Below are positions 61,907 to 63,432 of a DNA stretch of 64,000 nt, in pieces; position 1 is the stretch's first letter; each line of letters opens with the position of its first letter. The notes under the pieces were generated by a model. That model saw only the letters and a program-made list of their open reading frames with translations. It searched no databases and was not told the DNA's origin. This DNA is from Candidatus Nealsonbacteria bacterium (lineage in GTDB: Bacteria > Patescibacteriota > Minisyncoccia > Minisyncoccales > RBG-13-42-11): positions 6,565-70,564 of the forward strand of contig JAPLXL010000007.1 of the NCBI GenBank assembly GCA_026396115.1, in the 5' to 3' direction. The position numbers were made by a program, and so were the translations under genes.

Positions 61907-63432
61907 GAAAGCGATTCGGTATTTACATTTATTTTTGAATCCCAATCTATCTCCTTATAGCTGTGGAGTAATTTGCTAATATAATTCTTGAGAAAGATAT
62001 ATTGATTCTCTGTCTTTGCCTCAAATTTAATTGTAAGATAAGGTGCGTTTTGGGAATAACGAATGACGAACATACAGGTCTGCAAATCAACTCTTACTCC
62101 GTCTCCAGCCCGTTCGTCATCAATTACCCGAGCCACAGCGAAGGGCGAAGAAAGCTCAGCTTTCTTCTTTACCTTCGCTTTCTGCGAAAGCTCGGTGGGT
62201 AAAGAAGAGGATTTATCCTCTTCGCCATTTTTCGCGCCCGGATACTCCTTTTTAATGACCTTGCTAATTTTATTTATTAATTCTACTTTCTTATCATCGG
62301 CACAATATATTTTTATTTCCGGGCTTGATATATATTTAGGAAGTGAGTCGATGGCAGCAGATAACGACTGATTAGTTTTTGCCAAATAACTTAATAACCG
62401 CAAAGTTGAATAGAGCCCATCGTCGTGATTATAAAAATCAGCCGAAAAGAAGAAGTGTCCGGATAATTCCCCGATAAAAGCCGCTTTAACTTCTTGATTT
62501 TTTTTCTTTAAGAATGAATGGCCCGTTCTCCACATAAAAGGTCTGCCGCCGTATTTTACAATTGTCTCTTCAACCGCTTTTGAACAAAGGGTATTGTACA
62601 TTATAGTTGCTCCAGGATGCTCGTTTAAAACATCAATTGTGAAAAGCGCCACCAACACGTCATTCCAAACAATATTGCCTCGCTCGTCAACTATTCCTAT
62701 TCGGTCGCCATCGGCATCATACGAAAAACCAATGTCTGCTTTTTCCTGCCATACCTCGTTTCCTAGGCGCTGAGCAACAATAATACTGGTTGGATCTGGC
62801 ACACCCAAAGGAAAAGAAGAATCTAATTGACAATTCTTTTCAATAACTTCACATCCTGCCCTTCGTAGTAAATCCGGGACAATTGCTCCGGCAGTAGAAT
62901 AACTGGGGTCAATAACTACTTTGAATTTTTTTCTAATCGGCAACCTTTTTAGCAGATCTTCAAAATAGACTTTCTTGATATCTCGCTCCTCGCTCCTACC
63001 TTTAGTCTCTGCCTGCTCATAGTCTTCATTTTCTACCATTTGGCATAACTTCTGAATATTATCTGAAACTAAAGTCTCAGAAAAATCATTAGCTAACTTA
63101 AAACCATTATATTCAACTGGATTGTGTGAAGCAGTAACAAAAACGCCGCCTTTGCAATTTAAATAATATTGCGACCAATAAAAGGTTCCGACAAGATTCA
63201 AGCCAATGTTGATTATATCAATGCCGGCCCAATTCAATCCTTTGCCAATTGCTTGGCTAAATTTGGGACTGGTGGCGCGAGAATCATAACCTACTACTAC
63301 TTTTTTAATACTTAGCCTATTCAAAAAAGTACCAAAGGCCTTTCCTAAATGTTCTACTATCTCTGAATTTAAATCCTGATCAACTAAACCCCGAATGTCA
63401 TAACCACGAAATATAAAAGGGTTGATTTTCAT
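61903..63432 (-). CDS. Phosphomannomutase/phosphoglucomutase (alpha-D-phosphohexomutase family)
   Basis: IFRGYDIRG..., catalytic-Ser loop TASHNP, and GDGDR-like DADGDR. Contains a ~34-aa repeat-derived insert. Confidence 0.9.
   Translation of the reverse strand: MKINPFIFRGYDIRGLVDQDLNSEIVEHLGKAFGTFLNRLSIKKVVVGYDSRATSPKFSQAIGKGLNWAGIDIINIGLNLVGTFYWSQYYLNCKGGVFVTASHNPVEYNGFKLANDFSETLVSDNIQKLCQMVENEDYEQAETKGRSEERDIKKVYFEDLLKRLPIRKKFKVVIDPSYSTAGAIVPDLLRRAGCEVIEKNCQLDSSFPLGVPDPTSIIVAQRLGNEVWQEKADIGFSYDADGDRIGIVDERGNIVWNDVLVALFTIDVLNEHPGATIMYNTLCSKAVEETIVKYGGRPFMWRTGHSFLKKKNQEVKAAFIGELSGHFFFSADFYNHDDGLYSTLRLLSYLAKTNQSLSAAIDSLPKYISSPEIKIYCADDKKVELINKISKVIKKEYPGAKNGEEDKSSSLPTELSQKAKVKKKAELSSPFAVARVIDDERAGDGVRVDLQTCMFVIRYSQNAPYLTIKFEAKTENQYIFLKNYISKLLHSYKEIDWDSKINVNTESLS
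62126..62226. repeat. Nested pair of repeat-family elements in frame inside the PMM/PGM gene
   Basis: The outer short-form copy is split into 62126..62142 and 62197..62226. A 54-nt full-length copy in the opposite orientation occupies 62143..62196. Confidence 0.85.

Follow-up and report, generated by a model that had tools for sequence, protein, structure and literature searches.

A 64,000-nt stretch of a Candidatus Nealsonbacteria genome (contig JAPLXL010000007.1; hereafter the window) carries, within its gene for phosphomannomutase/phosphoglucomutase (PMM), an in-frame insert in which one copy of a short hairpin repeat is interrupted by a second, inverted copy of the same family. The explanation that we consider best, and hold with fairly high confidence, is that of a dispersed family of mobile hairpin repeats, one copy having inserted into another in PMM. 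An earlier, sequence-only reading of the window had proposed such a nest; that interpretation is essentially right, and the phenomenon is far wider than PMM alone.

The nested copy in the phosphomannomutase gene

Read directly on the minus strand, positions 62226 to 62126 consist of GGCGAAGAGGATAAATCCTCTTCTTTACCC, ACCGAGCTTTCGCAGAAAGCGAAGGTAAAGAAGAAAGCTGAGCTTTCTTCGCCC and TTCGCTGTGGCTCGGGT, in that order. The two outer pieces had been described as contiguous homologues of the copy in uvrA with one substitution, and pairwise alignment bears this out: joined together (30 + 17 nt), they match 51853-51899 at 46 of 47 positions, the sole difference being T/C at position 38. The 30-nt left piece is identical throughout to 51870-51899 (30/30), and the 17-nt piece matches 51853-51869 at 16 of 17 positions. 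The left piece occurs exactly twice in the window (51870-51899 and 62197-62226), where 100 shuffles gave an expectation of zero. The middle 54 nt are, as had also been proposed, a complete family unit in the opposite orientation, with both hairpins intact; the inner element reads forward on the minus strand and the outer on the plus strand. Its identity to the copy at 41482-41538, previously put at about 90%, was a fair estimate (50 identities in 58 alignment columns, i.e. 86% with gaps counted, or 93% of the inner bases); identities to 52334-52387 and 54351-54404 are 81% and 78%, respectively. An origin by fold-back, in which the outer element would have given rise to the inner unit by inverted copying, was rejected, the inner unit being long-form, with other hairpin stems and closest to 41482-41538.

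The nested junctions in the window are TTTACCC joined to ACCGAGC and TTCGCCC joined to TTCGCTG, and the CCC reported on both flanks of the inner unit is indeed present. The position of the inner element is ambiguous within microhomologies of 3-5 nt, namely CCC/GGG in comparison with the related locus L002 and TTCTT in comparison with L001. A multiple alignment of mixed orientations was uninformative because hairpin 2 aligns either way round, and the junctions were checked by direct comparison. Whilst the 34 in-frame residues assigned earlier to the insert stand, the 101 nt quoted for it were short by one boundary base, and its full length is 102 nt, giving 34 codons in frame. Folded as DNA, the 121-nt nest gives z = -4.9.

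DNA from five close relatives, with PMM genes 96.4-98.1% identical to that of the window, was then compared, and the PMM site was found in empty, outer-only and nested states (Table 1). The outer 3' part is present in L001 and L002 and missing from L003 and L004, and L001 and L002/L183 lack exactly the inner 54 nt (62143-62196). Derived single-nucleotide polymorphisms (SNPs) place L004 outside the other four and weakly unite the window with L001 and L002, while no site unites L001 with L002. Because of the three allele states and this SNP pattern, the simplest history of the PMM gene runs from empty to outer-only to nested. Mobility, for which the nest had been offered as direct evidence, is thus supported, although it is the allelic series, rather than nesting alone, that supplies the direct evidence.

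We therefore think it likely that an empty PMM gene received a short-form copy, that an inverted long-form copy later entered this copy, and that the inserts, filtered for lengths divisible by three (3n), were translated as a tolerated loop. The ancestral gene would have read GCGAAAA followed by TTATTGAT, with the short-form copy arriving in the ancestor shared by the window, L001 and L002 strains. In the window lineage a long-form copy would later have inserted, inverted, at the core GCGAA^GGGT of the resident copy. Only 3n-length insertions would persist in genes, and the 102 nt would be translated as a 34-residue surface loop leading from a helix to the first strand of domain 4.

Several observations weigh against this order of events. 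The junction in L001, TTCTTCGCCC, is the exact product predicted for a TTCTT-microhomology deletion of the nested allele, with no extra change. Register-shifted microhomology deletions of like size class occur elsewhere, in the remnant at 57776 of the window and in the L003 allele of the L004:4539 site, with the footprint TCTTCGAC. L150 and L123 differ by the presence or absence of a 111-nt composite in its entirety. Finally, the nested PMM allele was seen in one assembly alone, and the contig index yielded no exact match to the nested protein. That the inner element was gained rather than lost is probable rather than proven. With the polarity reversed, a ready-made 102-nt composite would have entered PMM once, and L001 and L002 would have lost the inner copy by TTCTT slippage; core nests are indeed common as units in other genomes. 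We nevertheless judge this unlikely. The L002/L183 junction, TTCTTCACCC, is the ordinary family consensus GGGTGAAG, for which a clean insertion at GCGAA^GGGT and one substitution suffice. Two identical deletions would be needed, in L001 and in L002, because no SNP unites the two, and the same genome holds an intact uvrA copy that is identical to the left piece at all 30 positions.

Gene conversion, by which a simple PMM copy would have been converted by a composite elsewhere in the genome, with the 30-nt and 17-nt arms as homology, appears quite improbable. The 64-kb window is without a composite bearing these arms, the arms are very short for RecA-type exchange, and the extra step leaves the origin of the donor unexplained; what speaks for it is a hint of concerted evolution, in that both copies, in uvrA and in PMM, read TTTACCC in the window, whereas both read TTCACCC in L183. 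As an observation in its own right, these copies (51853-51899 and 62126-62226 in the window, 334-380 and 10433-10479 in L183), which agree per genome at this site, agree by locus at a second one, with GTGG in PMM and GCGG in uvrA, a pattern for which conversion of one copy by the other may be responsible. We give very little credence to an assembly or binning artefact, in which a chimeric path through repeats made the nest: repeats do confuse de Bruijn assemblers and the nested PMM protein is recorded nowhere else, but the whole 102-nt nest is shorter than a read, its junctions share merely 3-5 nt, the frame is kept, and equivalent nests occur in independent assemblies, with one nested allele common to the separate metagenomes L002 and L003.

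At the protein level the insert corresponds to approximately residues 402-435 of PMM (403-436 from the 101-nt coordinates). That related PMM genes should not all carry the 34 residues is confirmed by their lengths, the window protein having 509 residues compared with 469-481 in nearly all of the 120 best homologues, those with names being from Candidatus Nealsonbacteria and further Patescibacteria. All 34 residues are missing from more than 100 orthologues; in the protein alignment these include distant orthologues, and P0001 (97% identical, 492 aa) is without exactly the inner 18. To place the loop in the structure, as suggested earlier, an AlphaFold model was built with 53 sequences (mean pLDDT confidence score 86). 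Residues 402-432 are its sole segment with pLDDT <50; in domain 4 they follow helix 379-396 and precede strand 435-438. Set against the Pseudomonas PMM/PGM structures (2FKF, 1K35), the insert falls in the stretch from residue 392 to residue 406, upstream of the conserved motif IDDERAGDG and of the R-Y-S-x-N loop, which binds phosphate. On this model, the insert is most likely a tolerated flexible, disordered loop in domain 4.

A two-hairpin repeat family and its turnover between strains

The family unit is 45-57 nt long and reads 5'-ACCGAG-hairpin1-GCGAAGGT(G/A)AAGAAGAG-loop-CTCTTCGCC-3', a short form of 48 nt having a reduced hairpin 1 (hp1); the alignment consensus is ACCGAGC-hp1-GCGAAGGTGAAGAAGAG-loop-CTCTTCGCC. 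An nhmmer profile built from eight seed copies gave 197 hits in 1.45 Mb of related loci, 89 of them unique full-length copies. In the window there are approximately 13 loci, all between 33 and 64 kb, and 10 of 12 copies are forward on the plus strand. Five loci lie in frame within genes, those for UvrA, UvrC, a cupin-type glucose-6-phosphate isomerase (GPI), RNase J and PMM. The first 33 kb of the window is without a convincing copy (best nhmmer E >0.6) and is mostly one long minus-strand gene run, with GC down to 29%. A strict pattern matched at least 101 stretches of the genome collection, and among the matches listed almost all are metagenome-assembled genomes (MAGs) of Patescibacteria; the complete Nealsonbacteria genome CP179888.1 has nine blocks with the family among the matches listed. 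Viral contigs gave no exact-pattern matches and thus no sign of phage carriage. Genuine family copies were also seen in L138, a 1.8-kb contig of a Thermodesulfovibrionales MAG, and in L158, a 5.3-kb contig of a 'Gammaproteobacteria' MAG. These two are most likely mis-binned contigs of the candidate phyla radiation (CPR), and the repeat could mark CPR contamination in MAG bins.

The two hairpins are strongly maintained. Across 48 distinct copies, 95.6% of cells are paired, compared with 43-50% when the partners are slid, and double changes occur at 13 of the 17 pairs. Of 500 shuffles, none reached the observed value on four of five covariation measures, and three did so on the fifth, which counts further pair types. 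ACCGAG, GCGAAGGTGAAGAAGAG and CTTCGCC, the unpaired motifs, are conserved across very divergent Patescibacteria genomes, whereas the stems vary; the conserved flanks are ACCGAG, GCGAAGG and CTTCGCC. Searches of Rfam returned tRNAs and noise only, both for the whole window at gathering thresholds and for 62050-62300 at permissive thresholds. Some copies form arrays: four identical 57-nt whole units lie head to tail in L147 (4822-5027), 37-nt modules of hairpin 2 only are arrayed in L116 (133-275), and doubled or tripled short forms are present in L112 (46-143) and L120 (256-384). Given both whole-unit and hairpin-2-only arrays, each hairpin module is able to multiply independently of the other.

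Set side by side (Table 1), the window and L001-L004, L183 and L185 differ by element-sized steps at many sites. Family copies come and go between strains only 2-4% apart in DNA, with both gains and losses. All 12 indels within open reading frames (ORFs) are multiples of three, compared with one of the five for which no ORF spans the site. Frame preservation is therefore a filter imposed by selection, not a property of the element. The inserts in genes are almost certainly translated, and removal at the RNA level, by a process like that of introns or SOS splicing, was set aside as unnecessary, the in-gene copies all being 3n and the intergenic ones not. At the 49222 site (L183 9804-9857, L185 ~678-740, oriented) the two relatives share hairpin 2 and differ in hairpin 1, which is CTTCC-GAA-GGAAG in L183 and CTTCCAT-TT-ATGGAAG in L185; this symmetric difference suggests a palindrome-preserving change in place. 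UvrA homologues (P0122-P0240) range from 926 to 1030 aa and have element-like peptides, e.g. SKKILSSPSSL, at no fewer than eight positions, some of them nested; P0222 apparently carries nests relative to P0170 and P0138.

Table 1. Family copies, allele states and host gene, with positions in the window unless a relative is named
Feature	Position or locus	Strand	Description
PMM host gene	61903..63432	-	Phosphomannomutase/phosphoglucomutase, 509 aa; ORF translates through insert; assigned from Pfam domains of homologues, of 475-476 aa
Outer element, 3' part	62197..62226	+	Core-right and hairpin 2, GGGTAAAGAAGAGGATTTATCCTCTTCGCC; family-forward on +; gene (-) reads 10 residues
Inner element	62143..62196	-	Full 54-nt long-form unit, ACCGAGC-hp1-GCGAAGGTAAAGAAGAAAGC-tga-GCTTTCTTCGCCC; encodes TELSQKAKVKKKAELSSP
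Outer element, 5' part	62126..62142	+	ACCCGAGCCACAGCGAA; gene reads (P)FAVARV
PMM, empty state	L003, L004		GCGAAAA, TT, ATTGATGAC; same site sequence in 81%-identical L005
PMM, outer-only state	L001, L002/L183		+48 nt
PMM, nested state	Window		+102 nt
uvrA short-form copy	51853..51900	+	In frame (gene on -), ~residues 144-160; present in window and L183 (+48), empty in L185 with 5-nt GCCCA junction repeat
uvrC long-form copy	54351..54404	+	In frame, 18 aa, ~residues 301-319; +54 in window, missing from L183
GPI nested pair	57956..58056	+	In frame, C-terminus, cupin-type; outer copy forward, 57956-57992 and 58038-58056
GPI inner copy	57993-58037		Inverted, 45 nt, inside hairpin 2; L002/L183 carry simple outer copy only
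RNase J copy	59101..59145	+	45 nt, 15 aa, in frame near N-terminus; in window and L003, cleanly absent from L002/L183, no duplication
Intergenic composite, spacer of RNase J and tryptophanyl-tRNA synthetase (TrpRS)	60810..60927		Three interleaved copies; one simple copy in L002/L003, none in L001
Long-form copy abutting uvrA start codon	52334..52386	+	Intergenic, +54 in window; absent from L183 and L185
Long-form copy, LemA/M48 peptidase spacer	41482..41538	+	Closest window relative of inner element; L183 has further copy in hairpin-1 loop
Short-form intergenic copy	42187..42241	+	nhmmer E=1e-13
Short-form copy at sigma-70 gene stop codon	33381..33431	+	nhmmer E=0.004
17-nt remnant	57776..57792	+	ACCG joined to AGTCCTCTTCGCC; complete in L002/L183; 45-nt internal deletion between AGTCC repeats (GGACT on other strand)
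Truncated copy, tRNA-Leu/RNase J start	59045..59077	-
Degenerate long-form copy upstream of PMM	63898..63950	+	Absent in L004
TrpRS copy	L001		+48 in L001 only
49222 site	49222		Copies in L183 and L185, none in window

It could be asked whether the sequences are kept for their usefulness, as a selected flexible loop rich in K, E and S or as a regulatory hairpin in RNA or DNA, rather than as selfish mobile DNA. Maintenance of the hairpins, the intergenic copies at gene boundaries and the occurrence of the same peptide in UvrA and PMM would all fit this idea. We find it improbable, however, in view of presence and absence among near-identical strains, the more than 100 orthologues without copies, insertion in either orientation and in no fewer than four of six reading frames, the predicted disorder of the loop and the absence of Rfam matches.

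Target choice and mechanism

Nesting is not peculiar to PMM. The PMM-type arrangement, CGA(A)G followed by an inverted copy and GGTGAAGA, was found by regular expression in L146, L149, L164 and L177 as well as in the window, and by eye in L126, L151 and L115; a further core nest is present in L002/L003, with simple alleles in L004/L006/L007. Altogether, 8 or more other loci have an inverted copy nested at this core site, CGAAG^GGTGAAG. Two other parts of the element also receive copies: there is a nest in hairpin 2 in L031, where L018 has a simple allele, and one in the hairpin-1 loop, in the same orientation, in L183, where the window has a simple copy at 41490. The claim that the element contains a preferred target is thus upheld, in that core nests recur, though the core is not unique, being one of at least three nest sites.

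On the strand where the element reads GxCGAAGAG...CTCGGT, the naive targets are GCGAAAA^TTATTG in PMM and ACGAAA^ATTAG in RNase J, the flanks of which share CGAAAATTA, together with CAGAAA^ATAAAG in TrpRS, AAAAAA^ATAGAAG and GGAAAAA^TTGACC. The left flank is a purine-rich GAA(A/G) in one orientation at 10 of 11 sites, and its sequence is not fixed. The element core GCGAAGGTGAAG resembles these naive targets, and such mimicry would explain the recurrent inverted self-insertion.

As to how the copies move, we tentatively favour, at somewhat less than even confidence and by analogy with known hairpin elements, non-autonomous elements moved in trans by a protein that would recognise folded single-stranded hairpins together with the conserved unpaired motifs. 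The copies would move as a folded single strand, like REP/RAYT elements or the ends of IS200/IS605. They would insert in a specific orientation beside purine-rich GAA(A/G), the target being read CGAAA/GAAGA where the element reads GxCGAAGAG...CTCGGT, and resident copies would be hit since their own core mimics the target. Loss would occur via slippage between the 3-5-nt microhomologies that flank the hairpins, leaving footprints behind. The elements have no terminal inverted repeats (TIRs), their ends, ACCGAGC... and ...CTCTTCGCC, not being reverse complements, and the junctions show no fixed duplication, with repeats of 0 nt in RNase J, 1 nt at 52334, 2 nt at the 49222 site and 5 nt in uvrA and at the GPI inner copy.

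Movement by such a protein has to be set against a number of findings that do not favour it. The junctions are uneven, with microhomology of 0-5 nt and 2-6 target bases replaced at some sites, less tidy than a site-specific transposase would lead one to expect. Among 20 ORFs in 33-61 kb annotated with Pfam there was no transposase, and neither the window nor the set of copy-flanked genes in the related loci yielded a RAYT-like gene. In the 1.45 Mb of related loci the 11 copy-flanked ORFs appear, to judge by their sequences, to be ordinary cellular genes (e.g. LemA, MreB-like, GrpE-like). No gene was recurrently copy-flanked across genomes, as in the RAYT-style signature, apart from the orthologous LemA pair, seen twice; nor was a related autonomous insertion sequence (IS) with the same ends present in the window or related loci. 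The wobble test is symmetric, with 21 G-T and 17 A-C pairs, and gives no support for a strand-specific intermediate; since the two counts are about equal, the structure is not marked as that of one strand. CP179888.1 has no replichore pattern, the orientations over 110-637 kb being -,+,-,+,-,-,-,+,+. The target rule itself is a lead only, because it derives from about a dozen sites in an AT-rich, purine-skewed genome.

The main rival reading is movement without a dedicated transposase, of which we are doubtful. Forks stalled at hairpins would jump between copies by template switching or microhomology-mediated copying, and, as part of the same idea, the hairpin arms would be kept complementary by quasipalindrome correction, not selection. 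This would accommodate the 0-5 nt of microhomology with no fixed duplication, the likeness of target flanks to element ends, the mosaic and modular copies with their tandem arrays of half and whole units (L116, L147), the symmetric change in a hairpin that distinguishes L183 from L185, the strand-symmetric wobble counts and the want of an enzyme candidate in the window or next to copies in the related loci. It fits poorly with clean whole-unit insertions at naive coding sites far from other copies, e.g. in RNase J, and with the conservation of the unpaired motifs while stems vary, a combination typical of protein recognition.

Three further candidates were rejected: a strand-specific RNA structure, there being no wobble asymmetry; a replication-linked orientation, since the forward bias of the window is not matched by a replichore pattern on CP179888.1; and a replication origin at the cumulative GC-skew minimum at ~52.3 kb, where the spacer is ~110 nt and mostly element.

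Some features of the window lie outside the repeat family. Tandem direct repeats with a 261-nt period occupy positions 1-534 (1-149/262-410, 80% identity; 170-273/431-534, 90%) and probably belong to a repeat-containing gene running off the window end. A stretch of ~170 nt is duplicated 4004 nt apart (1965-2142 and 5969-6141, 86-93% identity) and contains a terminator-like hairpin, AAAAAACCCGCC...GGCGGGGTATTTTTT; a similar motif, AAAAAACCGCC, occurs at 22169, 22890, 25344 and 27570. Relative to L183, the window has an additional 965-nt segment (39515-40481) that abuts tRNA-Ser (40480-40569) and contains an ORF of 167 aa (39673..40176) with no Pfam hit, and ~56 extra bases at 42121-42161, CGAAATTAATCGAAGATTAATTGAAGGTTGAAATGAATTGAAAATTCATTGAAC..., a small AT-rich indel lying upstream of LemA. 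A stretch of ~3.5 kb (43701-47248) that separates the histidine kinase gene from that for GroEL is replaced in L183 (oriented 4673-7830) by ~3.2 kb of unrelated sequence with a methyltransferase and an unknown 513-aa gene, a strain-variable cassette.

Significance and comparison with known systems

The genomes of CPR/Patescibacteria are among the smallest of any bacteria, yet the essential genes for UvrA, UvrC, RNase J, PMM and TrpRS have repeatedly received insertions. The family offers a molecular source for unexplained insertions in CPR proteins, and a natural experiment on where proteins tolerate loops of 15-37 residues. Its copies are usable as strain-level markers and call for caution in MAG assembly, gene calling and phylogenomic alignments in Patescibacteria. 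Filled, empty and footprint alleles, together with self-targeting, make the movement of in-frame elements like the Rickettsia palindromic elements (RPEs) testable. More speculatively, the family could represent an undescribed Patescibacteria-specific class of mobile DNA with a mechanism unlike that of known transposons, moved by a new enzyme that recognises hairpin and motifs or by enzyme-free template switching, with a target that mimics the core, and be a main cause of extra loops in CPR proteins. We see this as a minority prospect; if true, such a class would be a main cause of length heterogeneity in CPR housekeeping proteins.

RPEs, reportedly described by Ogata et al. in 2000 and 2002, resemble the family in several respects, including that, to our knowledge, no transposase or other mobilising enzyme is known for them. 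RPE-1 to RPE-10 are ~100-150 bp long, lie in frame in unrelated housekeeping genes and are translated (PMC10969869). Both are dispersed palindromic repeats of reduced genomes, with two hairpins here, inserted in frame in unrelated genes (here PMM, UvrA, UvrC, GPI and RNase J) that have orthologues without inserts. Surface placement compatible with the fold is a further likeness, predicted here by modelling of PMM only. The family differs from RPEs in its length of 45-57 nt, in its two short covarying hairpins, its tandem arrays of half and whole units and its frequent self-nesting, and in presence and absence at 96-98% identity.

REP and REPIN elements are mobilised by RAYTs, which are Y1 HUH transposases (PMC3116915, PMC3733652). 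They too are very short hairpin repeats with conserved unpaired tags, no TIRs or target duplication and often inverted pairs, and are thought to move as folded single strands. REPs are extragenic, however, with a GTAG or CGTC tag, stems nearly uniform within a genome and, as a hallmark, a REP-flanked RAYT gene, none of which was found in the window or related loci; the family flanks ACCGAG, GCGAAGG and CTTCGCC are without a GTAG or CGTC tag, and 5 of ~13 window loci are inside genes. The PATEs derived from IS200/IS605 likewise have hairpins near both ends, no TIRs, no duplication and seamless empty sites, and they insert in a specific orientation beside a short asymmetric target. They are larger, with a fixed tetra- or pentanucleotide target, a TnpA partner and a lagging-strand bias, whereas the family has a loose GAA-rich tract as its apparent target, no TnpA seen in the window or related loci and no replichore bias seen on CP179888.1.

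Classical bacterial MITEs (miniature transposable elements with inverted repeats) such as Correia, ERIC and RU-1/2/3 (PMC2759123, PMC3184786) are similarly small and non-autonomous repeats, which in some cases lie within genes and have open reading frames. MITEs differ from the family in having TIRs, fixed target-site duplications and a parent IS; no parent IS was found in the window or related loci. The cyanobacterial small dispersed repeats (SDRs) come close in the kind of evidence, as Elhai et al. (2008, Genome Research) are said to have inferred their mobility from nested copies and from filled and empty sites between strains. SDRs are ~21-27 nt long and mostly intergenic, and we know of no systematic in-frame insertion of SDRs in housekeeping proteins; very small size, nested copies and filled and empty sites are shared, and the structure differs. 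In the literature searched, including a Nealsonbacteria genome paper, we found no account of such elements in Patescibacteria. The family is apparently a previously undescribed one that behaves like RPEs and is set apart from them by size and by its occurrence in Patescibacteria rather than Rickettsia.

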